Positions 48,371 through 61,143 of a DNA stretch of 64,000 nt are shown here, piece after piece (the first letter of the stretch is position 1; each line of letters starts with the position of its first letter). The notes under the pieces were generated by a model that searched no databases, was not told the origin of the DNA, and was given only the letters and a program-made list of their open reading frames with translations. This stretch comes from an uncultured Acidobacteriota bacterium (lineage in GTDB: Bacteria; Acidobacteriota; UBA6911): positions 32,001 to 96,000 of the forward strand of contig CAWEJX010000009.1 in assembly GCA_963809485.1 (NCBI GenBank), in the 5' to 3' direction. The position numbers and the translations under genes were made by a program.

Positions 48371-48483
48371 AGTTCCGTTCTCCCTGTATCGCGGGCATTA
48401 TAAACCATTTGCGAACTCCGCCGCTGCCCCGAAAAATCCCGGATTTGAAAATTGGCGTTGCGGGACCCGTTTATTATATAGTT

Positions 48484-50535
48484 ATGGGCATGGATAATGT
48501 TTCGAAGCGTTATCACACGCTGCTCGAAATATCCGAAGCCATCGCTGCCCATTATCAGTTTTCAGATTTTTTTCAGTCTTTGAAAAGCAGCCTTGGGCGG
48601 ATTATTCGCTTTGACAGCTTCGGTATTTCCCTGTATGACCCGGAGCAGCAGACGAGCCGGCTGTACATGCTCGAACCCGACATGCCCGTGGAATTCCCCG
48701 TCGGAAGGATTTTTCGCGCGGATGAAACCCCGAATGCCTCGGTACTCCAAACGCTGCAGCCCTATTACGCCCCGGATGTTGAGCAGGACCATCGCTTTCC
48801 TGAAGTCTCCGGCTCCATGCGGCGCCAGGGAATCAGGAGCTGCTGCGTGCTGCCCCTTCACACGGCCCGGCGCAGGCTGGGAGTCCTGTTTTTCGGGGCT
48901 GCGGTAAAAAATGCTTATCCCAGCGGGGACATCGAGTTCATGCAGGATGCGGCCCGTCAGATCGGCGTGGCGCTGGAAAACCTGCTGAACCACGAAGCTG
49001 CTGCCGCGATGCAGGCAGAACTGGCCAATGAGCGCGACCATCTTCAGCTGCTGCTCGACGTGAGTGATGCGGTGGCTGCCGAACTGGACATCCGGAAGCT
49101 TTTCGTCTCCATCTCGACCTGCCTGAGGAAGCTGCTGAAAGCTGAGTTCGCAAGTCTCACCCTCATCGACGAGGACACAGGGCTCCTGCGGCGCCTGTCG
49201 CTTGATTTTCCGGGCAGCCGGGGCGTATTTGAAGAAAACGCGCTGCTGCCACGCGAAGGGACTCCAGCAGGCGAAGCGTTATCAAAACGGGCTCCGGCTC
49301 TGTGGCTCCGGGAGAAAATGGAAAGCGTCAACCAGCCCTGGGCCAGGAACCTGCTCCGGGAGGGATTGGTCGAGTTCTGCGCAGCCCCTCTTATATCACG
49401 GCAGCGAGAACTCGGCACGCTCAACCTTCTCAGCCGGCGCGAGGGCGCTTTCAGCGAATCCCACATCAAGCTGCTCCTGGAAGTTGCGGCGCATTTCGCG
49501 ATCGCGCTGGACAATGCCCTTGCATACCGCCGCATCGGGGAGCTGAATCAGAAACTGGCCAAGGAAAACCTTTACCTGACGGACGAGATCCGCAGCAATT
49601 ATTTATTCGAAGAAATTATCGGCGAAAGTAAAAGCCTGCAGAAAGCCCTGAAACAGGTTGATCTCGTAGCCCCTTCGGATTCGACGGTGCTGATATGCGG
49701 CGAGACAGGAACCGGCAAGGAACAAATCGCCCGCGCCATCCACAACCTCAGTGAGCGCCGGATGAGCACGTTCGTTAAACTCAACTGCGCAGCCATACCG
49801 ACCGGGCTGCTCGAAAGCGAAATGTTCGGACATGAAAAGGGAGCATTCACGGGCGCCATCGCTCAGCGCATCGGCCGCTTCGAGCTTGCGCATCGCGGCA
49901 CGCTGTTCCTGGATGAAATCGGCGACATCCCGCTCGAGCTCCAGTCAAAACTGTTGCGCGTGCTGCAGGAACAGGAATTCGAGCGGCTGGGGAGCGGAAG
50001 CACCATTCGGGTGGACGTTCGACTTGTCGCCGCTACCAACCGCAATCTTCCGGAAATGGTGGAAAAGGGAGAATTCCGGAATGACCTGTTTTATCGGCTG
50101 AATGTTTTCCCGATTGTTTTGCCGCCGTTGCGGCAGCGCAGCGATGATATTCCGCTGTTGGTCCGGTATTTTGCTCAGCAGGTCGCACGGCGCATGGGAA
50201 AGAAGATCCGCACAATCCCCGCAGAGACCATGGATAAGCTGGTTCGGTATCCCTGGCCGGGAAACGTGCGGGAACTGCAGAATCTGATTGAAAGGGCCGT
50301 AATCCTCTCTCCCGGGGACGTGCTGCAGGTACCGATCACCGAACTGAAAATTCCTTCCACACCAGCCGGGCACCCCGCGCAGACTCTTGAACAGGCCGAG
50401 CGCCTGCACGTCCTTGATGCATTGCGCGAGACCAACTGGGTTGTCAGCGGGCCGCGCGGAGCAGCCGCGCGGCTGGGCTTGAAACGCTCCACCCTTCAAT
50501 CCCGCATGAAAAAGCTTGGCATCCGCAAGGCATAG
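48484..50535 (+). CDS. Sigma54-dependent activator, GAF-GAF-AAA+-HTH (FhlA/HyfR-like)
   Basis: GETGTGKE, GAFTGA, FLDEIG, FYRLNVFP, WPGNVREL, AAARLGLKRSTL. Confidence 0.95.
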   Translation: MGMDNVSKRYHTLLEISEAIAAHYQFSDFFQSLKSSLGRIIRFDSFGISLYDPEQQTSRLYMLEPDMPVEFPVGRIFRADETPNASVLQTLQPYYAPDVEQDHRFPEVSGSMRRQGIRSCCVLPLHTARRRLGVLFFGAAVKNAYPSGDIEFMQDAARQIGVALENLLNHEAAAAMQAELANERDHLQLLLDVSDAVAAELDIRKLFVSISTCLRKLLKAEFASLTLIDEDTGLLRRLSLDFPGSRGVFEENALLPREGTPAGEALSKRAPALWLREKMESVNQPWARNLLREGLVEFCAAPLISRQRELGTLNLLSRREGAFSESHIKLLLEVAAHFAIALDNALAYRRIGELNQKLAKENLYLTDEIRSNYLFEEIIGESKSLQKALKQVDLVAPSDSTVLICGETGTGKEQIARAIHNLSERRMSTFVKLNCAAIPTGLLESEMFGHEKGAFTGAIAQRIGRFELAHRGTLFLDEIGDIPLELQSKLLRVLQEQEFERLGSGSTIRVDVRLVAATNRNLPEMVEKGEFRNDLFYRLNVFPIVLPPLRQRSDDIPLLVRYFAQQVARRMGKKIRTIPAETMDKLVRYPWPGNVRELQNLIERAVILSPGDVLQVPITELKIPSTPAGHPAQTLEQAERLHVLDALRETNWVVSGPRGAAARLGLKRSTLQSRMKKLGIRKA

Positions 50536-50692: not shown

Positions 50693-50708
50693 TGGCACGC
50701 AATTTGCA
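50693..50708 (+). promoter_or_regulatory. Sigma54 promoter
   Basis: TGGCAC-GCAAT-TTGCA consensus match. Confidence 0.85.
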
Positions 50709-50737: not shown

Positions 50738-51022
50738 ATGCTAAAAATTACCACCATCGATGCAAACGGTACCAGAAAGCTAAAGCTTGAAGGGAAGCTC
50801 AAAGAGGCATGGGTTCTCGAGCTTGAGCAGTGCTGGCGGAGTCTGGATGGGCGAAGGAGGATTGTCGTCGATCTGACGGACGTTGATTTTGTGGACACGG
50901 CCGGCAAATATCTGCTGGCTCTTATGTATGGCCGCGGCGCCCGCTTTGTTGCGGACAGCCCGATGATGAAGCAGTACCTGGCCAAGCTTGTGGCCACTTC
51001 CAAGCACCTGACAAACAATTGA
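50738..51022 (+). CDS. STAS-domain protein
   Basis: LKLEGKL..W..ELEQCW..VDLTDVDFVDTAG. Confidence 0.8.
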   Translation: MLKITTIDANGTRKLKLEGKLKEAWVLELEQCWRSLDGRRRIVVDLTDVDFVDTAGKYLLALMYGRGARFVADSPMMKQYLAKLVATSKHLTNN

Positions 51023-51637: not shown

Positions 51638-51739
51638 TTTTCTAAACTATTTCGATACACAATTTTCTGAGTAAGCGCCTATTCTGCTGTAATGACAGAT
51701 TCATTGGGTCCTGCATGTTCGCAAAACGGGAGGGAACAA

Positions 51740-53479
51740 ATGAGCCAAAACTGGCGGGAACTCATCAGTCAACCCAAGCACAACATCAAAACCGAGAAGG
51801 ATGTTTTTGCACCGATGCGGGATGGGACTCGCTTGTGCGTGAATATCTACCGTCCGGAGGCAGCCGGGAGATTTCCTGCGTTACTGGCCATGGGCGGATA
51901 CGGCAAGGAGTTGCAGGAACTTCTGATCCCGCCGCAGCCGCTTCATAAAAGCGCGGTCTGGGATGGGAACATCGAGGCCGGGGATACACCGGACATAGTG
52001 CCCCGCGGATATGTGCATGTGATCGCGGACGCGCGCGGGACGGGCAAATCCGAGGGAGAATTTCCCGGCATGTGGTCTTCGCAGGAAGGCCGGGACGGTC
52101 ACGACCTGGTCGAGTGGATCGCGCAGCAGCCGTGGTGCGACGGGAACGTGGGAATGATCGGCTACTCTTACTATGGCTGCATCCAGCTGAAAGTGGCGAT
52201 TGAACAGCCGCCGCATCTGAAGGCAATTTTCGTTTCCCATCTGGTCAACGATTTCTACCGGGACGGCGTATACGGCGGAGGTGTGCTCGGCCTGTTTTAC
52301 TACGGGATCTGGGACGGCCGGCACGGCACGAGCGGCTTTGCTCCCAAAAACGCTCCCGTACTATCGATGAAGGAATTTTCCGGGGAGGAGTTCGAGCGCA
52401 GGCGCCAGGCGCTGTTGAACGATCCGGATATCCGGCACTATCCCAATATCTACCACTTGTTGAACTACCCCCAAAAGAATCCATGGGTCTTCGACATGCT
52501 CATGCATCCCTTTGACGGCCCCTTCTGGCAGGACCGGTCCATTTATCCTCATTTTGACAAAATCAGGATTCCCGTGTACGTGGTCGGCAAGGCCGCGCAC
52601 GGCGCCGGAGCTTTCTGGGATATTTACAGCGGCATTCAATCGGCCAAGAGACTGCTGGTCAAACCTTTCGGGCCGGAGGAGAGGCCGTGGCGCGAGGATA
52701 CCGAACTCATCATCCGCTGGTACGACCATTGGCTGAAGGGCTTGGACACCGGAATAATGAACGGACCGCCCATTCACATGTTTGTCCAGGGAATCAACCG
52801 GTGGCGCGATGAGACGGAGTGGCCCCTCCCGGGAACCGAGTGGGTAAAATGCTACCTCCGCCGATGGGAGAACCTGTCTTTCGCCCCTGAGCGTTATCAG
52901 CATCACCCGGACTGCTTCCTTCAGCAACCGCTTTACCTGTCCAACAAGCGAGACTCCGTCAAGTATGTCAGCGCACCCATGCCCGAGAACATAACGGTTA
53001 TCGGGCCTTCCGCATTCAACTTTTACGCTTCCATCGACACGGACGATACCAACTGGATCGTCAAATTGAGCGATGTGGCCCCGGGCGGCGCGGAGACGCC
53101 ACTGGCCAAGGGCATCCTGAAAGCCTCGCACCGTGCCCTGGACCGGGAAAAATCGAGGCCCTATGCCCCCTATCACACACACGTCCAATCGGATCCGGTC
53201 GTGCCAGACGAAATCAACGAGTACAATGTAAGTCTGGGCAAGATAACCAATGTCTTCAGGGGGGGCCACCGCATTAAACTCGAAATACTGAGTCTGGAGT
53301 CTCCCAGGGATCCTGAGATGCAGATTCATTATCACCCGACGCTGCCCAGCAGCAGGACCACTCTGCACAAGATTTACCGCAATAAGGAGTACCCTTCGCA
53401 CCTTGTGCTCCCTATCGTGGGCAGGAAGGACAGCGTGATGGAATACCTGAGCGACGAGAATATGGTGGGGGCGCTTTAG
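51740..53479 (+). CDS. CocE/NonD family serine hydrolase
   Basis: MRDGTRL, DARGTGKSEG, WCDGNVGMIGYSYYG, RWYDHWLKG. Confidence 0.93.
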   Translation: MSQNWRELISQPKHNIKTEKDVFAPMRDGTRLCVNIYRPEAAGRFPALLAMGGYGKELQELLIPPQPLHKSAVWDGNIEAGDTPDIVPRGYVHVIADARGTGKSEGEFPGMWSSQEGRDGHDLVEWIAQQPWCDGNVGMIGYSYYGCIQLKVAIEQPPHLKAIFVSHLVNDFYRDGVYGGGVLGLFYYGIWDGRHGTSGFAPKNAPVLSMKEFSGEEFERRRQALLNDPDIRHYPNIYHLLNYPQKNPWVFDMLMHPFDGPFWQDRSIYPHFDKIRIPVYVVGKAAHGAGAFWDIYSGIQSAKRLLVKPFGPEERPWREDTELIIRWYDHWLKGLDTGIMNGPPIHMFVQGINRWRDETEWPLPGTEWVKCYLRRWENLSFAPERYQHHPDCFLQQPLYLSNKRDSVKYVSAPMPENITVIGPSAFNFYASIDTDDTNWIVKLSDVAPGGAETPLAKGILKASHRALDREKSRPYAPYHTHVQSDPVVPDEINEYNVSLGKITNVFRGGHRIKLEILSLESPRDPEMQIHYHPTLPSSRTTLHKIYRNKEYPSHLVLPIVGRKDSVMEYLSDENMVGAL

Positions 53480-54624: not shown

Positions 54625-55340
54625 TGATTTTCTCCTTTACCGATGGATACGTGAGTTCCCTTCCTGGTGTTTCGCGCGAATTCCCTGATGATGACGGCAT
54701 GATATCCCATCTTCCCGCGCTATTCACCCATTATCGAATTCCGGGATATACAAAAGCTCGCCTCCTTACAGGATACAGAGAGACCAAAGGCAGTAAGCCG
54801 GGAGGCATCGGTCCGCTTCGGGTGCCCAAACGGAAAGACTCTTCTATGCTTTGAGACTCTTCCACACCTGAGGCTTTCTCCGGCTTTCAAGGCCGGTTTT
54901 GGCTGCCAGGGGCGGCCGCAGGATCGAGCCCGCAGTTTTGCCTGAATCCCGATGGTTTTGCATTGACAACGTTTGCCCGCTAGATTATCAAACTAATACC
55001 CGGCGCCATGCGCCCGGATGGCATGACTCACTGTTCATTTCTGGATTGGCTGGGCTTCTGTTGCGGATCATTGATGATTTTCCCAAATTTCAATCATCAG
55101 GCATTCAATCAGGCAGGCAGTGTTTGGCAGGAGCCCGTGCAGTCGGGAGGCTCGCGGATTGATTAATTCTGCAATCGCCTCGATCCATGAACCGCGCATC
55201 GAGAGCCCCTGCCGGGACAAGGCTCATGGCCTATGCAGCGCTCGGCAGCGGCGCGAGATGGGTCCATCGGGGCCGTCCCATCAATCCCGGATATTTGCCG
55301 GATCCGCCGGCGCAAAGCCCGATCGAGGGAGGCGTAGTCC

Positions 55341-56627
55341 ATGTCCATAGCTATTGTCGGAATGCTGGACGAGAGAGAAGAAGCTCTCGGAATCATCAGA
55401 GATTGCATTGCGCAGCGCGGCCACAAGCCCCTCTTGATGGATATCAGCGTCGGAACTGGCGCCATTGTCCCCTCGCTCCAGGCGGATGTTCGTTGCGATG
55501 AGTTGCTCGAATTGGGCAGAAAAAGCGCAGAGCCGGGTCCAGGGGGCAAAAGCACCGTGACATCTGTCATGGCCCAGGGGCTGGTGGCGAAGATCCTGGA
55601 GCTCCAGAGGTCGGGAGAACTGCAGGGCATCATCGCCATCACCGGGATGACGGGCGCGCTCATATCGCTGACCGCAATGAAAGCATTGCCTTTCGGCGTC
55701 CCCAAGCTTCTCGTATCCGGCGCCACCGCCCAGCCCGCACACGCAAGCCAGTTCGCCGATTATTTTGCGGTCCGCGATATAACGGTAATGAACACCGTGG
55801 TCGACACCGTAGGAATGAATGCGCTGGTCCGGACACTCGCTGTCAACGGAGCCAACGCCATTTCCGGGATGGTGGAAGGGGCCCGGGGCCTCCGGCATGA
55901 GAGCCGGCCCTCCATTGCCATCACCGAATTCGGCTTTTGCGAGAAGGGGGCGCATCACATCCGGGCAATTCTGGAGAAGGAATACGATCTGGTCTCATTT
56001 CATGCAACGGGTCTGGGCGACAAAGCCGTGATGGATCTGTTGCCCCAGGGGATCTTCCAAGCATTTGTCGATCTTGTCCCGGGGGCTTTCAGCGAACACC
56101 TCCTCGGAGGCAACAGAGGCTTCGTGGGACCGAACCGCCTGGATGCGGCTTCCGCTTTGCCTCTGCCTTACATTTTTTGTCCGGGCGGTTTTGACATCAT
56201 AAGCTGCGGGCCCATGGAAAGGAGGGACAGGAATGATCCGCTCTGGACATCGCGCAGGCTTGCGGAGAGAAAACTGTTCGTGCAGGACCCTCCCAGGGTC
56301 CAGGCCAGGATGAATCCCGAAGAAACGGAATATGTAGCCGCAGCCGCCGCAGAAAGGCTGAATCAATACAGCCTCAAGGCAAGGGTCAAGGCCGTAATCC
56401 CGCGCAGAGGCTTTTCCTCCATCAGCATGGAAGGGGGCCCGCTTCACGATCCTGCGGCCGACAGGGTTTTTGCGGCCGCTTTCAAAGAGCATCTGGATCG
56501 CGAAATAGAAATCATTGAAGTGGACTCGGACATAAACAGCCCCGCTTTCGCAGAGGCCGTGGCGGGGGCGTTGGCGCGCGCCATGACAGGAGAAACCGGA
56601 AAGGGAGGTTCATCGCAGCATGGATAA
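55341..56627 (+). CDS. Tm-1-like ATP-binding domain protein (UPF0261), divergent copy
   Basis: IVGMLD, LPFGVPKLLVS, D..GMN, FHATG, PGGFD, DINSPAFA. Confidence 0.88.
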   Translation: MSIAIVGMLDEREEALGIIRDCIAQRGHKPLLMDISVGTGAIVPSLQADVRCDELLELGRKSAEPGPGGKSTVTSVMAQGLVAKILELQRSGELQGIIAITGMTGALISLTAMKALPFGVPKLLVSGATAQPAHASQFADYFAVRDITVMNTVVDTVGMNALVRTLAVNGANAISGMVEGARGLRHESRPSIAITEFGFCEKGAHHIRAILEKEYDLVSFHATGLGDKAVMDLLPQGIFQAFVDLVPGAFSEHLLGGNRGFVGPNRLDAASALPLPYIFCPGGFDIISCGPMERRDRNDPLWTSRRLAERKLFVQDPPRVQARMNPEETEYVAAAAAERLNQYSLKARVKAVIPRRGFSSISMEGGPLHDPAADRVFAAAFKEHLDREIEIIEVDSDINSPAFAEAVAGALARAMTGETGKGGSSQHG

Positions 56628-58356
56628 GATCGAATTCGTCGATCAAACCATCCGGGATGCTCAACAGAGCCTCTGGGGCCTGATGATGCGGACCGACCAC
56701 ATAGTCCCGATTGCGGAAACCATGGGCAAAGTGGGATACCGGGCGATCGCGACCGTCGGTTCCCAGGCGTTCACCGTGCAGGTTCGAAAACACAATGAAG
56801 ATCCGTGGGAGAGGATCCGGACTCTCTCTCAACTTATGCCCCGGACCTGCCTGCGCGGGTCCTACCAGACGGCCAGCCTTTCCGCATTCGACCTCAGCAC
56901 TCCTCGAAATATCATTGTTCTCTGGATAAAGCGGTCCGTGGCCAACGGCATCAGAAGCTTCTGGATCTGCGACTACCAGGAAAACATGGAGAGGTTCCGA
57001 TATTTCGCCCACATAGCCCGGAACGAGGGAGCCGAGATCGTCACGGCGCTGATGTACACGCAAAGCCCGGCCCATACCGATGAGCATTGGGCGCAAAAAG
57101 TCCGGCTGATAGCGGACTCGAAGGACTGCATCGACCGCATCATGATCGAGGACGCCTCCGGCATCCTGACGCCGGAGCGAACGCGCAAGCTGGTCTCCAC
57201 GGTTCAGAAAAATTGCGGCGGCATTCCGCTCGAGTTCCACGGTCACTGCAATTCCGGGCTGGCGCCTCTCTGCTACCTGGAAGCCATTGAATCAGGCGTC
57301 ACGACCGTCCATACCGCGGTTGCGCCTCTTGCCAACGGCACTTCCATGCCTTCGACAGAGAACATATTGAGAAACGCGCGCCGCCTGGGCTATGAATCCG
57401 ATTTGAACGAGGATGCTCTTTCCGCCGTATCCGCCCATTTCAGGGCGATTGCCCAAAAGGAAGGATTGCCCGTCGGCGCGCCCGTGGAATATGACCTCTT
57501 CCATTTTGAGCACCAGGTTCCCGGGGGGATGATGACAAACCTGACGCGGCAGCTCCGGGAGGTGGGAATGGAGCACCGTTTGAGTGAAATCCTTCCCGAG
57601 GTCGCAAAAGTGCGCAAGGAATTCGGATATCCCGTGATGGCGACCCCTTATTCCCAGATCGTCGGATCGCAGGCTGTCGAGAACATTGTCTCGGGCGAAC
57701 GATATAAAAAGATCACGGACGAGACCATTAAATATGCCCTGGGCTACTATGGCCAGCCCGTCGTTCCACTGGATCCGAATCTGATGGACAAAATCCTGAG
57801 CTTGCCCAGGACAAGGGAATTTCAGGACTGGGAGCCGGAAGGGTACCACAAATCCATTGAACAGCTGCGCGAGGAAATCGGGCCCGGGCTTTCCGACGAC
57901 GACCTGCTGCTCCAGGTTCTGATTCCCGGCAAACCGCTTCGGCGCGGCGAGCATAAGGCCCGGGCCCATGCGCCGATCGCGGCCGCTGAAGCAACCGGCG
58001 GATCCCCCATCGGATTCAGGAGCGTTGCGGGGAGGTTCAGCGTGGAGGTGGACGGAGAGATATTCAATGTAAAAATCTCGCCCGTCCCGGAAGAATCCGA
58101 TAAAACCGTTGAAAATGGCCAATCGCGGCCTGCGGAATTGCCCCAAGGATCGGTGGTCTGCGACATCGCGGGACTGGTGCTCTCGATTGAGGTGAAAGTC
58201 GGGGACCGCGTGCATGAGGGAGACCCGGTCGCGGTGATCGAGGCGATGAAAATGAGAAGGCAGATTCACTCGCCCCTCGAAGGGGTGGTCCGCGGTATTT
58301 TGGCAAGAGAGGGCGAAATCGTCGACATCAACGATGTTCTGATGGTGGTATCCTGA
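56620..58356 (+). CDS. PycB/OadA-like carboxyltransferase with biotinyl domain and atypical active site
   Basis: DQTIRDAQQSL, EDPWERIR, FHGHCNSG, HQVPGGM, GYPVMATPYSQIVG, EAMKM. Confidence 0.9.
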   Translation: MDKIEFVDQTIRDAQQSLWGLMMRTDHIVPIAETMGKVGYRAIATVGSQAFTVQVRKHNEDPWERIRTLSQLMPRTCLRGSYQTASLSAFDLSTPRNIIVLWIKRSVANGIRSFWICDYQENMERFRYFAHIARNEGAEIVTALMYTQSPAHTDEHWAQKVRLIADSKDCIDRIMIEDASGILTPERTRKLVSTVQKNCGGIPLEFHGHCNSGLAPLCYLEAIESGVTTVHTAVAPLANGTSMPSTENILRNARRLGYESDLNEDALSAVSAHFRAIAQKEGLPVGAPVEYDLFHFEHQVPGGMMTNLTRQLREVGMEHRLSEILPEVAKVRKEFGYPVMATPYSQIVGSQAVENIVSGERYKKITDETIKYALGYYGQPVVPLDPNLMDKILSLPRTREFQDWEPEGYHKSIEQLREEIGPGLSDDDLLLQVLIPGKPLRRGEHKARAHAPIAAAEATGGSPIGFRSVAGRFSVEVDGEIFNVKISPVPEESDKTVENGQSRPAELPQGSVVCDIAGLVLSIEVKVGDRVHEGDPVAVIEAMKMRRQIHSPLEGVVRGILAREGEIVDINDVLMVVS

Positions 58357-58357
58357 A

Positions 58358-59833
58358 ATGATCAAGAAGATTCTCATAGCCAATCGCGGCGAGATCGCAA
58401 TCCGTGTTATGAGGGCATGCCGCGAAATGGGAATCCCTTCCGTCGCCGTATTTTCGGAAGCGGACAGGGATGCGCTTTTTACCAGGTACGCGGACGAAGC
58501 TTACGGGATCGGCCCGGCGCCGGCATCCCGGAGCTATCTCAATATCCCCAAAATCATCCAAACCGCCAGAGAATGCGGGGCTGATGCAATCCATCCCGGA
58601 TACGGATTCCTGGCGGAAAATCCGGAATTTGCCCTGGCCTGTGAGAAGGAAGGGATCCGCTTTATCGGGCCATCCAGCGGCGTGCTCAGGCTCCTGGGCG
58701 ACAAGCTGGCTGCAAGGCGCGAGATGATTAAGGCAAGCATCCCTGTTGTGCCGGGAACGGTTGAGCGCGTGGAGAACTTCGAGCATGCCCGCAGCGCGGC
58801 CGGAGCCATCGGATATCCCGTGATGATCAAGCCGTCGGGAGGCGGCGGGGGGATCGGGATGACGGTGGTCGGGAACGAAAGCGAGCTGGCGGATGCGCTG
58901 GAATCCGCGAGCGCGATCGCCAGGACGACTTTCGGCCTCGGAGACGTTTACATCGAGAAGTATCTGTTTCACCCGCGCCACATTGAGTTCCAGATACTGG
59001 GGGATTCCGGGGGCCATGTCATCCATCTGGGAGAACGGGAATGCTCCATTCAGCGAAGGCATCAAAAGCTGATCGAGGAATCGCCGTCCACGGCGCTCAC
59101 TCCTGAGCTGCGTGAAGCCATGGGCGCGACCGCGGTGAAAGCCGCCCGGTGTGTCGGGTATGAAGGGGCGGGCACCGTGGAGTTTCTCTTTTCGAATGGA
59201 AGCTTCTATTTCCTCGAAGTGAACGCCAGGGTTCAAGTGGAGCATCCGGTTACGGAGATGGTGACCGGCACGGATATCGTGAAGGAACAGATTCGGATTG
59301 CCGCGGGACTGCCTCTTCGTTACAGGCAGGAGGACGTGAGGATCAGGGGGAGCGCCATCGAGTGCCGTATCAATGCGGAAGATCCGCTGAATGGCTTTGT
59401 CCCGGCACCTGGAAAGATTCAGACCTATCATGCTCCCGGCGGCACAGGCATCCGGGTAGACAGCGGAGTCTGCAGCTCCTGCTCCATCCCGCCTTTCTAC
59501 GATCCGCTGATATCAAAGCTCATCGTCTGGGGCACGGACAGGGATGAGGCGATCGCAAAAATGCAAAGAGCCCTTTACGAATATGTGATCCTCGGAGTCG
59601 CAAGCAACATTCCGTTCCACCAGGCGGTGATGGAGAATCCGCGGTTCAGGGCCGGGGAACTGGAGACTGGATTCATCGACCGGGAAGTTTCACTGAACGC
59701 TGACATAAGACGTATTGTGGAGACTGGAGGGCGATTGCAGGATAGATTTCCCCGCCAGGCTGAAAACAGGAAAAAGGTCGTCGCAATGGCGGTTGCCGCC
59801 GCTTTGTCCGGTGCGCTCGAACCGAGGCAATGA
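58358..59833 (+). CDS. Biotin carboxylase (AccC/PycA)
   Basis: ILIANRGEIA, HPGYGFLAEN, GGGGIGM, RECSIQRRHQK, EVNARVQVEH, RINAED. Confidence 0.96.
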   Translation: MIKKILIANRGEIAIRVMRACREMGIPSVAVFSEADRDALFTRYADEAYGIGPAPASRSYLNIPKIIQTARECGADAIHPGYGFLAENPEFALACEKEGIRFIGPSSGVLRLLGDKLAARREMIKASIPVVPGTVERVENFEHARSAAGAIGYPVMIKPSGGGGGIGMTVVGNESELADALESASAIARTTFGLGDVYIEKYLFHPRHIEFQILGDSGGHVIHLGERECSIQRRHQKLIEESPSTALTPELREAMGATAVKAARCVGYEGAGTVEFLFSNGSFYFLEVNARVQVEHPVTEMVTGTDIVKEQIRIAAGLPLRYRQEDVRIRGSAIECRINAEDPLNGFVPAPGKIQTYHAPGGTGIRVDSGVCSSCSIPPFYDPLISKLIVWGTDRDEAIAKMQRALYEYVILGVASNIPFHQAVMENPRFRAGELETGFIDREVSLNADIRRIVETGGRLQDRFPRQAENRKKVVAMAVAAALSGALEPRQ

Positions 59834-59910
59834 AGCTGCAGCCCTGTCCGGGGCGCCATGGAATCGATCCATCGGAGTTTGATGCCATTCGGAATCTTCG
59901 GAGGTTTTCT

Positions 59911-61143
59911 ATGAGTAGCAAGCCGAAAGTCATGATGATTGTTACGATGGACACCAAAGAGGCTGAGGCCCGCTTTATGCGAAAGTGCCTGGAAGACAAT
60001 GGCCTCGAGGTTTACCACCTCGACGCCAGCATACTCCGGACGATTGATTGCGGGGCTGCCATCACTCCAGATCAGATCGCTGCGGCGGCCGGCAAAACCA
60101 TGCCCGAGGTCCGGGCTCTCAACCACGAAGCCAAATGTCTGGCCATTATGATCGAGGGAGCCATCCCGTGCGCCCAAGAGCTCCACCGGCAGGTCGGGCT
60201 CAGCGGAATCCTTGCTGCGGGAGGTTCGCTGGGGACTGTTCTCGGCTCGGCGGTTATGCGGACATTCCCGTTCGGCCTTCCCAAGATGATGATCTCGACC
60301 ATGGCGTCCGGAAATACACTGCCCTACGTCGGCACCCGCGATATCGTCATGGTTCCCTCGATATGCGACATTGCCGGCTTAAACACCGTGACACGATGCG
60401 TGTTTCAAAATGCGTCTCGCGCCCTCGCCGGAATGGCTCATGGCTACAAGCCTCTTCCGGCTTCCGACAAACCCCTGATCGCGATTTCAACCCTCAGCAC
60501 CACCGAAAAATGCTGCACCGCGATTCGCGAAGCTCTGGAGCAGCGAGGCTTTGAAGTGATGGTCTTCCACACGCAGGGGACCGGCGGCGTCGCCATGGAT
60601 GTAACCGTCCGCGAGCAGGACGTCTCCATCGCCGTGAATCTGTCGCTGATTGAAGTCAGTGACTTTCTGGTCCAGGGCCTGTTCAGCGGAGGCCCCGACA
60701 GGTGCAAGGCATCGCTTGAAAAGGGTATCCCGACGATCTTTGTGCCGGGCAACATCGACTTCATGGTTGCAGGCCCGATTGAAGACGCGAAGGTCCGCTT
60801 TCCCGGCAGGCGTTATCACGTCCACAACGAAGTGCTGACGGCGGTTCGAGCGGAGGCTGGGGAGTTCAAGCGTGTGGCGGATCATATGGCAGGGCTGATC
60901 CGAGAGGCGAAGGGGTCCGTGGCGTTCCTTGTCCCGCTGCTCGGATTTTCCAATCATGACAGTCCGCAAGGCTATTTGTACGATCCGTCCCTTCCTCCTG
61001 TTTTCGCCGAATATATACAGCAGGCAATGCCCGAAGGTGTGCCGATGGTGTTTCTCCCCCATCACATCAACGACAAGCCTTTTGCCGAGGCCATTATTCA
61101 GCAGGTCCTCGCTTTTCAGAAAAACACTGGATCAGCGGGCTGA
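59911..61143 (+). CDS. Tm-1-like ATP-binding domain protein (UPF0261), canonical-looking copy
   Basis: TMDTKEAE, GGSLGT, PFGLPKMMISTMASG, DIAGLN, VFHTQGTGG, HINDKPFA; RBS GGAGG. Confidence 0.92.
   Translation: MSSKPKVMMIVTMDTKEAEARFMRKCLEDNGLEVYHLDASILRTIDCGAAITPDQIAAAAGKTMPEVRALNHEAKCLAIMIEGAIPCAQELHRQVGLSGILAAGGSLGTVLGSAVMRTFPFGLPKMMISTMASGNTLPYVGTRDIVMVPSICDIAGLNTVTRCVFQNASRALAGMAHGYKPLPASDKPLIAISTLSTTEKCCTAIREALEQRGFEVMVFHTQGTGGVAMDVTVREQDVSIAVNLSLIEVSDFLVQGLFSGGPDRCKASLEKGIPTIFVPGNIDFMVAGPIEDAKVRFPGRRYHVHNEVLTAVRAEAGEFKRVADHMAGLIREAKGSVAFLVPLLGFSNHDSPQGYLYDPSLPPVFAEYIQQAMPEGVPMVFLPHHINDKPFAEAIIQQVLAFQKNTGSAG

Follow-up and report, generated by a model that had tools for sequence, protein, structure and literature searches.

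A conserved operon that joins two UPF0261 proteins to a biotin-dependent carboxylase: a probable system for phosphorylation and carboxylation of phenolic ketones in uncultured Acidobacteriota and Actinomycetota

Gene content and conservation of the operon

We analysed a stretch of 64,000 nucleotides (nt) from an uncultured Acidobacteriota bacterium (assembly GCA_963809485.1, contig CAWEJX010000009.1, positions 32,001 to 96,000), hereafter the window, and focused on four adjacent genes on its forward strand, here called g1 to g4. The gene g1 (55341-56627, 428 aa) codes for a divergent UPF0261 paralogue with the N- and C-terminal UPF0261 domains of Pfam, and g2 (56620-58356, 578 aa) codes for a PycB-like carboxyltransferase of the TIM-barrel fold with a biotin carrier fused at its C-terminus (HMGL-like, PYC_OADA, and Biotin_lipoyl in Pfam). 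The other two are g3 (58358-59833, 491 aa), coding for the ATP-grasp subunit of a biotin carboxylase (Biotin_carb_N, CPSase_L_D2, and Biotin_carb_C in Pfam), and g4 (59911-61143, 410 aa), coding for a second protein with both UPF0261 domains, most likely a kinase of the MarK type. A first-pass annotation had described four tightly linked, co-oriented genes spaced by an 8-nt overlap, a 1-nt gap, and a 77-nt gap, and the coordinates of the open reading frames (ORFs) agree with this. The frame of g4 is open from 59830, and its likely start is the ATG at 59911, which is preceded by the ribosome-binding site GGAGG. The genome of the window comprises 6.0 Mb on 21 contigs, is 95.7% complete, and contains g1 and g4 as its only UPF0261 genes. 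The earlier remark that the usual partner of such proteins, a phosphoenolpyruvate (PEP)-hydrolase TIM barrel, is missing from the window holds for this whole genome, with no match to PF09370. Judging from sequence comparisons, the four genes probably encode one "phosphorylate, then carboxylate" system for a phenolic ketone, a variant of the MarK/AcvCDEF and HpeHI/HpeCBAD systems. Its most likely substrate is a 4-hydroxyphenyl alkyl ketone, with 4-hydroxyacetophenone and acetovanillone as examples.

With a profile built from 20 relatives of g1, contigs representing one genome per species were searched, and 50 of the 233 pattern matches were confirmed as g1 loci (23 in Acidobacteriota, 11 in Actinomycetota, 15 in Thermodesulfobacteriota, and 1 unlabelled). 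The order g1-g2-g3-g4 was colinear in 28 of these 50 loci, 18 from Acidobacteriota and 10 from Actinomycetota, and it was present in 28 of the 30 loci of these two phyla that have at least 4 kb of contig downstream. Among the other six loci of the two phyla, four are cut by contig ends, one is a g1 fragment (L049), and one is a variant (L010). The survey of UPF0261 neighbourhoods, suggested at first pass as a check for recurrence, thus revealed a conserved unit, and g1 to g4 are a real, conserved, and specialised operon, far removed from a chance arrangement. The operon is rare in its phylum, being found in 1 of 400 other sampled genomes. A search of sequencing runs for words of the operon listed no RNA run, and none of the runs contained half of the words (best share 0.28). 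Of the 16 Thermodesulfobacteriota and unlabelled loci, four have a g4-like gene immediately before g1 and five have a more distant second UPF0261 gene, while a g2/g3-type carboxylase was found only at L029, in divergent orientation. Four of the five Thermodesulfobacteriota genomes without a partner at the g1 locus have further UPF0261 genes elsewhere (2, 6, 1, 5, and 13 matches in the five genomes).

Two departures from the common order were observed. In the Acidobacteriaceae variant L010 (11277-18640; also L011), g1 and g2 are followed, at the place of the biotin carboxylase, by a canonical 5S/OadA-type carboxyltransferase with RDAHQS and KDM, then by a fusion of a protein like 3-hydroxy-3-methylglutaryl-coenzyme A (HMG-CoA) synthase with DUF35, by a thiolase, and by g4. 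This arrangement could be a transcarboxylase version that is independent of adenosine triphosphate (ATP). The locus L049 (10001-10827), on a second contig of the metagenome-assembled genome that carries L012, holds a g1 fragment of 49% of the length and 6% of g2, and is apparently a decayed operon copy.

The probable MarK-type kinase g4

MarK (Saro_1862) of Novosphingobium aromaticivorans is described, in the accessible text of Hall et al. (2025, PMC12624787), as a UPF0261 homodimer with kinase activity on acetovanillone and related phenolic ketones, ATP being converted to adenosine diphosphate (ADP). The earlier statement that UPF0261 proteins have no established function is therefore outdated. 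According to the same text, D14, T15, and K16 form the likely ATP site, replacement of K16 by Glu lowers the activity about 1600-fold, and marK heads an operon that also contains acvCDEF. The MarK-AcvCDEF operon corresponds to Saro_1862-1858, and plasmid copies were found in Pseudomonas putida YC-AE1 (L053) and Sphingobium yanoikuyae YC-JY1 (L055).

The product of g4 aligned with MarK (PDB 9MPY) over nearly its whole length, residues 1-397 on 1-396, with 435.6 bits and an E-value of 1.3e-129. It scored 188 and 204 bits against the N and C domains of UPF0261 in Pfam, and 478 against the NCBIfam model NF002674, above the cut-off of 335. Its N-terminal motifs are TMDTK and GGSLGT, so that D14-T15-K16 are kept, and it also retains the residues matching H219, F283, H304, and H348, by which MarK contacts the phenolic oxygen, the ring (through stacking), and the ketone. 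A tree of 72 UPF0261 sequences from the loci placed g4 and its orthologues in one clade, together with the MarK-like proteins of the P. putida and Sphingobium plasmids with marK-acvCDEF-type clusters, and g4 is 55.5% identical to the P. putida copy. Throughout this clade, DTK or DSK is retained, as are the residues matching H219, F283, H304, and H348. The close homology and the kept residues make g4 most likely a MarK-type kinase.

The biotin-dependent carboxylase g2/g3

A biotin carboxylase and a carrier with a biotinylatable Lys are both present in the operon, the carrier being fused to g2 instead of forming a separate subunit, with the biotinylation motif AMKM in the C-terminal Biotin_lipoyl domain. 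The layout of g2, with an HMGL-like TIM barrel, PYC_OADA, and a biotinyl domain beside a separate ATP-grasp biotin carboxylase, is that of PycAB and OadA, and g2 keeps the HxH metal ligands and the Thr region of the catalytic loop. In canonical carboxyltransferases the Lys of the KDM motif is carbamylated and serves as a metal ligand. Compared with PycB (5ks8), OadA (2nx9), and 5S (1rqb), however, g2 has RDAQQS for RDAHQS and EDA for KDM, and these changes of His to Gln and of Lys to Glu extend across the whole g2 clade. A further difference from PycAB and OadA is that UPF0261 genes always flank g2. The signature of g2 is RDAQQSLWG, of which QSLWG is common to g2 and the carboxyltransferases of the Acv/Hpe-type clusters.

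For these comparisons, plasmid homologues from the same gene arrangements stood in for AcvE, HpeB, and XccA. By tblastn against plasmids, the nearest relatives found for the carboxyltransferase domain of g2 were those of the Rhodococcus cluster, with 44.9% identity and EDA in both, followed by the Acv-type and related cluster carboxyltransferases (35-42.5%), and by OadA and pyruvate carboxylase (25-31%). In the carboxyltransferase tree, the pyruvate carboxylase, OadA, and 5S types, among them a canonical paralogue from the genome of the window, separated with a support of 1.000, and the g2 clade was sister to the carboxyltransferases of Rhodococcus and N. resinovorum with a support of 0.970. 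Like g2, the kinase-linked carboxyltransferases lack the His of RDAHQS, whereas the kinase-less relatives in Burkholderia, Cnuibacter, and Arthrobacter keep both His and Lys. On these grounds of clade and motif, g2 is classed here as an Acv/Hpe-type carboxyltransferase and not as a pyruvate carboxylase or OadA.

The opposite view, that g2 and g3 are an ordinary two-subunit pyruvate (or 2-oxoglutarate) carboxylase with the UPF0261 genes as unrelated neighbours, can draw on the PycAB layout, on the domain-level PycB model NF006761, which g2 passes with 419 against a cut-off of 402, and on g3, which passes an AccC/PycA-type equivalog model. These points are outweighed by the equivalog models for PycB and OadA, all of which g2 missed by far (PRK14041, 304 vs 734; PRK14042, 275 vs 1182; TIGR01108, 383 vs 756), by the clade-wide loss of the Lys and His, by the tree, and by the four-gene order kept in two phyla. 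In addition, a canonical 5S/OadA-type carboxyltransferase with RDAHQS and KDM lies on another contig (C8) of the same genome. The ordinary-carboxylase explanation is thus largely refuted and scarcely credible, in line with the first-pass view of the middle genes as something other than an ordinary pyruvate carboxylase.

The biotin carboxylase g3 scored 768 against NF006406 (cut-off 739). It is 45-50% identical to the biotin carboxylases of the Acv/Hpe-type clusters and 57-60% identical to two paralogues in its own genome, and it was rejected as a marker of the system type for being closer to the latter. A categorical distinction between a PycB-type enzyme and AcvCDE, with AcvCDE regarded as of the KipI/KipA type, was likewise rejected: in SYK-6 the carboxyltransferase AcvE is described as PycB-like and AcvF as HAD-type, where HAD stands for haloacid dehalogenase (bioRxiv 10.1101/2022.04.28.489975, as far as the available text goes).

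The kinase-less carboxyltransferase relatives, which keep RDxHQS and KDA, were observed on plasmids of Cnuibacter (L068, 7929-14613), Burkholderia (L061), and Arthrobacter (L069). Their neighbours are accB, accC, BioY, 3-oxoacid CoA-transferase A/B, and thiolase genes, or a nearby acetoacetate decarboxylase gene. They are candidates for biotin-dependent carboxylases of non-phosphorylated ketones.

A proposed route for phenolic ketones

In the proposed route, g4 would first move the gamma-phosphate of ATP onto the phenolic hydroxyl, as its homology to MarK suggests. From what is known of its family, g3 would carboxylate the biotin on the C-terminal domain of g2 with ATP and bicarbonate. The TIM barrel of g2 would then carboxylate the phosphorylated substrate at the methyl carbon beside the keto group and so form a phospho-aroylacetate, a step proposed on account of the clade membership of g2 and its changed pyruvate-site residues. 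Finally, a 3-oxoacid CoA-transferase and a thiolase, whose genes are adjacent in related genomes, may yield aroyl-CoA and acetyl-CoA, judging from those neighbourhoods. The remaining protein, g1, would enter the route as a conserved and specialised UPF0261 paralogue that is predicted to pair with g4. The first-pass annotation had proposed that the UPF0261 pair acts on a non-pyruvate substrate for the biotin enzyme, and with a MarK-like g4 and an Acv/Hpe-type g2 these proteins very probably do prepare such a substrate. The same combination of a kinase with a PycB-like carboxyltransferase, a biotin carboxylase, and a carrier, acting on phosphorylated hydroxyphenyl ketones, constitutes the Hpe/Acv pathway in the parts of the two reports available (PMC9618137; bioRxiv 10.1101/2022.04.28.489975). 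In the former, HpeCBA carboxylates phosphorylated ketones only, and the NagD-like HAD protein HpeD then dephosphorylates the carboxylated product. The system of g1 to g4 is best read as being in the style of strict anaerobes.

The neighbours of the 50 g1 loci were surveyed with a simple ORF caller, which gave 697 ORFs of at least 100 aa and sometimes chose antisense frames in GC-rich contigs. Subunit B of 3-oxoacid CoA-transferase recurred in 10 loci and subunit A in 8, an SCP-x-type thiolase in 5, and a short-chain dehydrogenase/reductase in 11. The thiolase is of the SCP-x/BbsB-like type, which is seen with DUF35-type partners. An acetoacetate-CoA ligase-type gene was not found in adjacent position.

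These neighbourhoods also bear on a different substrate. The biotin enzyme might form a 3-oxoacid by carboxylation of a small aliphatic ketone (for instance acetone or butanone) or of some other compound able to enolise, while the UPF0261 pair regulates the carboxylase or phosphorylates a non-phenolic compound, for instance the enol form. In favour of this, the neighbours seen most often are thiolase and CoA-transferase A/B of the ScoAB/PcaIJ family, and the pocket of g1 is unlike the aromatic pocket of MarK (see below). However, g4 retains the MarK residues for phenol, ring, and ketone, g2 groups with the kinase-linked carboxyltransferases that have lost the His of RDAHQS, relatives of g1 occur in phenol (pps/ppc) operons, and the thiolase is SCP-x/BbsB-like with DUF35-type partners. 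A non-phenolic substrate is therefore considered unlikely. Several observations nevertheless weigh against the phenolic-ketone route as proposed. The operon of the window has no adjacent CoA-transferase, thiolase, or aromatic-ring genes, and the pathway context is drawn from other genomes only. CoA-transferase and thiolase neighbours would suit acetoacetate equally well. The position of MarK G195 varies in the g4 clade (G, A, or S) and is Ser in the g4 of the window. Moreover, kinase-less carboxyltransferase relatives occur with ScoAB and thiolase genes in Cnuibacter or near the acetoacetate decarboxylase gene in Burkholderia, and therefore the wider carboxyltransferase clade is not confined to phenolic substrates.

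The divergent UPF0261 paralogue g1

The first gene of the operon codes for a protein that belongs to UPF0261 by its domains, with 115 bits for the N domain (PF06792) and 174 bits for the C domain (PF23189), and that misses the NCBIfam subfamily cut-off (269.5 vs 335) and gives just 120 bits with MarK (9MPY). The contrast between the N-terminal motifs noted at first pass is real: g1 has MLDER where g4 has TMDTK, and TGMTGA where g4 has GGSLGT, so that the D-T-K of MarK becomes D-E-R. The two motifs that mark a MarK-type ATP site, D14-T15-K16 and GGSxG(T/S), are thus both replaced, and the replacements are fixed in the g1 clade, which lies apart from that of g4 and MarK in the UPF0261 tree. DER is present in 35 of 36 g1-clade sequences and EER in the remaining one. 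In the pocket, the His matching MarK H219 is kept, while H304 is replaced by Q, H348 by L/I, F283 by M/I, and I285 by S. The 20 aligned relatives of g1 are 64-79% identical across phyla, with M8, D10, E11, R12, and E13 invariant, and the protein has conserved residues of its own (R259, R294, R305, K311, R319, and C289) as well as a short conserved insertion around W302. On this sequence evidence, g1 is a UPF0261 member by fold, yet it should not be classed as a MarK-type kinase, and it is under selection, its changes being fixed and not decayed. The earlier suggestion of one canonical and one specialised subunit fits a MarK-like g4 and a g1 in a separate, fixed clade.

Modelling of complexes, another check suggested at first pass, predicted a g1-g4 pair with a score of 0.81 (0.88, 0.81, and 0.76 in the separate runs), against 0.00 for the best of three controls; the mark of 0.81 was reached by 58 of 80 solved complexes and by 2 of 110 mismatched pairs. 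At least 56% of the contacts were common to the runs, the predicted local distance difference test (pLDDT) value of the partners was at least 83, and the interface lay around residues 120-175 in both N domains. A pairing of g1 with g4 via their N-terminal domains is therefore predicted. Two reservations count against this pairing: the models were made from alignments of our own and express a likeness to a known dimer, not proof of binding, and the prediction may simply mirror the solved homodimers of MarK and Tm-1.

If the pair is formed, g1 could be a catalytically dead pseudo-kinase that scaffolds or regulates g4 in a heterodimer with one active site, the phosphate being removed by an unlinked housekeeping phosphatase or lost later. 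The predicted heterodimer and the alteration of both nucleotide-binding motifs are consistent with this, the more so as MarK itself loses so much activity by the K16 change (PMC12624787), and in SYK-6 extracts a host phosphatase could replace AcvF (bioRxiv 10.1101/2022.04.28.489975). However, g1 is as conserved as the surrounding enzymes, its changes are fixed and are accompanied by an insertion that is conserved and by Arg, Lys, and Cys residues that are newly invariant, the His matching H219 is kept, and g1 is also found without an adjacent g4-type partner. We regard a dead g1 as rather doubtful.

Phosphate removal and the link to anaerobic phenol operons

A phosphatase gene of the AcvF/HpeD-type HAD family or of the tyrosine-phosphatase type seen in Rhodococcus was searched for by tblastn with three HAD queries and one tyrosine-phosphatase query (E <= 1e-5, at least 50% coverage). 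Within 10 kb of g1 it was found at none of the 50 loci, whereas all four kinase-linked clusters of known type that were fetched have a phosphatase of one type or the other; this contrast overstates the independence of the observations, since the loci are interrelated and the absence is a negative within 10 kb, and it is to be set against our interpretation to that extent. In the genome of the window, the sole match was 26% identical and lay on another contig.

The g1 relatives of Thermodesulfobacteriota lie among genes for PpsA, PpsB, a CBS protein like PpsC, PpcB, UbiX, and a PaaK-like ligase, and PpcB at these phenol-type loci scored 490 against a TIGR02724 cut-off of 469. A delta subunit of the HAD type was not seen in 10 further ORFs scanned there, a subset of the ORFs. 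In the strict anaerobes with this Pps/Ppc pathway, the alpha, gamma, and delta (phosphatase) subunits of Ppc are absent from the cluster, and the Desulfatiglans anilini phenol cluster is described as having ppc-beta only, with alpha and delta homologues elsewhere and gamma not found, in the available portion of PMC6114531. It also speaks against our interpretation that a Pps kinase is already present at the phenol-type loci, so that the UPF0261 pair would be superfluous there as a kinase.

The patterns at the g1 loci suggest that g1 may have taken over the handling of aryl phosphates. Our preferred, though tentative, guess is that g1 handles the phosphorylated product by removing or transferring the phosphate, because the operons have no phosphatase gene, the nucleotide site of g1 is altered, and conserved basic residues have been added. 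Alternatively, g1 may be a non-catalytic or specificity partner of the kinase. A bolder version is improbable, though it would be consequential: bound to the MarK-type kinase, g1 might strip the phosphoryl group from the carboxylated product and return it to ADP or to the next substrate. If this were true, the activating phosphate would be reused and one ATP saved per turnover in energy-limited anaerobes, and in strict anaerobes g1 would likewise stand in for the "missing" phosphatase subunit of phenylphosphate carboxylase.

Other features were observed around the anaerobic loci. Directly past g1 in L029 (11271-16262) are genes for an isochorismatase-family protein and a three-subunit molybdoenzyme of the xanthine-dehydrogenase family. 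The trio was far under the cut-off for 4-hydroxybenzoyl-CoA reductase (213 vs 995), and this assignment was not used. Isochorismatase-family genes also occur in L038, in L043, and in a plasmid cluster of Sulfitobacter. The genome G405 of Syntrophorhabdales, which carries L034, has 13 UPF0261 N-domain matches in a single genome of 4.4 Mb, pointing to a large expansion of UPF0261 in an anaerobic aromatic degrader. A pair of ORFs of about 110 and 448 aa occurs in 6-7 loci (L026, 13586-15310; also L005, L008, L010, L028, L029, and L051), several times beside CoA-transferase genes. The pair has no strong Pfam match and falls in ESM Atlas clusters named "UGSC family (seleno)protein", and its split may reflect an in-frame TGA.

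Comparison with known systems

Like MarK-AcvCDEF, the operon joins a UPF0261 kinase to a biotin carboxylase, a carrier, and a carboxyltransferase that is PycB-like and falls in the same non-canonical clade, and the chemistry is likely the same, with ATP-dependent phosphorylation of the phenol followed by biotin-dependent carboxylation beside the keto group. The gene orders are different. The P. putida and Sphingobium plasmids have a MarK-like gene, carrier, biotin carboxylase, carboxyltransferase, and HAD; Rhizobium has an AcvAB-like kinase, carrier, biotin carboxylase, carboxyltransferase, HAD, and acetoacetate-CoA ligase; and Rhodococcus has a kinase of the pyruvate phosphate dikinase type, carrier, biotin carboxylase, carboxyltransferase, an OB-fold protein, a thiolase, and a tyrosine-phosphatase-type protein. 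In contrast to MarK-AcvCDEF, the operon of g1 to g4 is headed by a second, divergent UPF0261 gene, has the carrier fused to the carboxyltransferase and the kinase in last place, and contains neither the HAD phosphatase AcvF nor an acetoacetate-CoA ligase. The Acv-type enzymes keep KDP where g2 has EDA, and they belong to aerobic Proteobacteria, whereas the hosts here are uncultured Acidobacteriota and Actinomycetota.

The logic of a kinase, a carboxylase restricted to phospho-ketones, and removal of the phosphate is shared with HpeHI/HpeCBA/HpeD of Rhodococcus rhodochrous GD02 and XccABC of Aromatoleum aromaticum EbN1, and the Rhodococcus cluster has a thiolase of the type seen beside the g1-g4 loci. 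Those systems, however, use a two-subunit dikinase of the PEP-synthase type that yields adenosine monophosphate, not a UPF0261 kinase, and they have three separate carboxylase subunits, a dedicated phosphatase, and no g1-type protein. The PpsABC and Ppc phenol pathway of Thauera aromatica and D. anilini is similar in that phenol is phosphorylated ahead of carboxylation, and genes of the g1 clade lie inside such operons in Thermodesulfobacteriota, directly past ppcB. Ppc is nevertheless an enzyme of the UbiD type with prenylated flavin mononucleotide that carboxylates the ring, whereas g2/g3 is biotin-dependent and carboxylation of a side-chain methyl is expected.

The kind of system encoded by g1 to g4 has thus already been described, and calling it undescribed, as at first pass, was overstated, since the Hpe/Acv pathway has the same logic in what is available of its reports (PMC9618137; bioRxiv 10.1101/2022.04.28.489975). 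The new element of the operon is g1. A prior description of a paired or divergent UPF0261 protein with a carboxylase was not found in full-text searches of the literature, and operons with two UPF0261 genes may be among those in the supplementary genome lists of the MarK paper (PMC12624787). Only one enzyme of the very large UPF0261 family has been characterised, so a function for g1 would add a second activity, and it might explain why strict anaerobes lack phosphatase-type subunits in their carboxylation systems. Phenolic ketones come from lignin and peat phenolics, and the known Hpe/Acv/MarK route has been studied in aerobic isolates only. The operon suggests a compact version of this route in uncultured Acidobacteriota and Actinomycetota, and the shared g1 clade ties it to the anaerobic phenol pathway. 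For lignin-valorisation pathways, candidate components are the fused carboxyltransferase-carrier and the paired kinase-like proteins.

Flanking genes and promoter-like sites in the window

The genes that flank the operon in the window comprise two downstream ORFs without a Pfam family, one of them weakly like spermidine synthase (NCBIfam), and ORFs for an EF-G-like (elongation factor G) protein, a methyltransferase, a GGDEF-EAL protein, a GH43 protein, and a transketolase. They were considered as members of the pathway and rejected as unrelated; their recurrence, if any, is limited to the closest relative, L003.

Scans of the window for sigma-70 promoters and terminators gave matches at chance level. 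A sigma-54 promoter was sought before g1 because a gene for a sigma-54 activator lies 5 kb upstream, and just one site, with three mismatches, was found ahead of g1, at 55148; matches across the window numbered 86, against a mean of 99.8 after shuffling, and were thus not in excess. The activator (48409-50535) has two GAF domains. The one perfect sigma-54 consensus, TGGCACGCAATTTGCA, lies on the forward strand at 50693-50708, 158 nt past the stop of the activator gene, and it precedes not the operon but a small STAS-like ORF (50738-51022) and a hydrolase of the CocE/NonD family (51692-53479).

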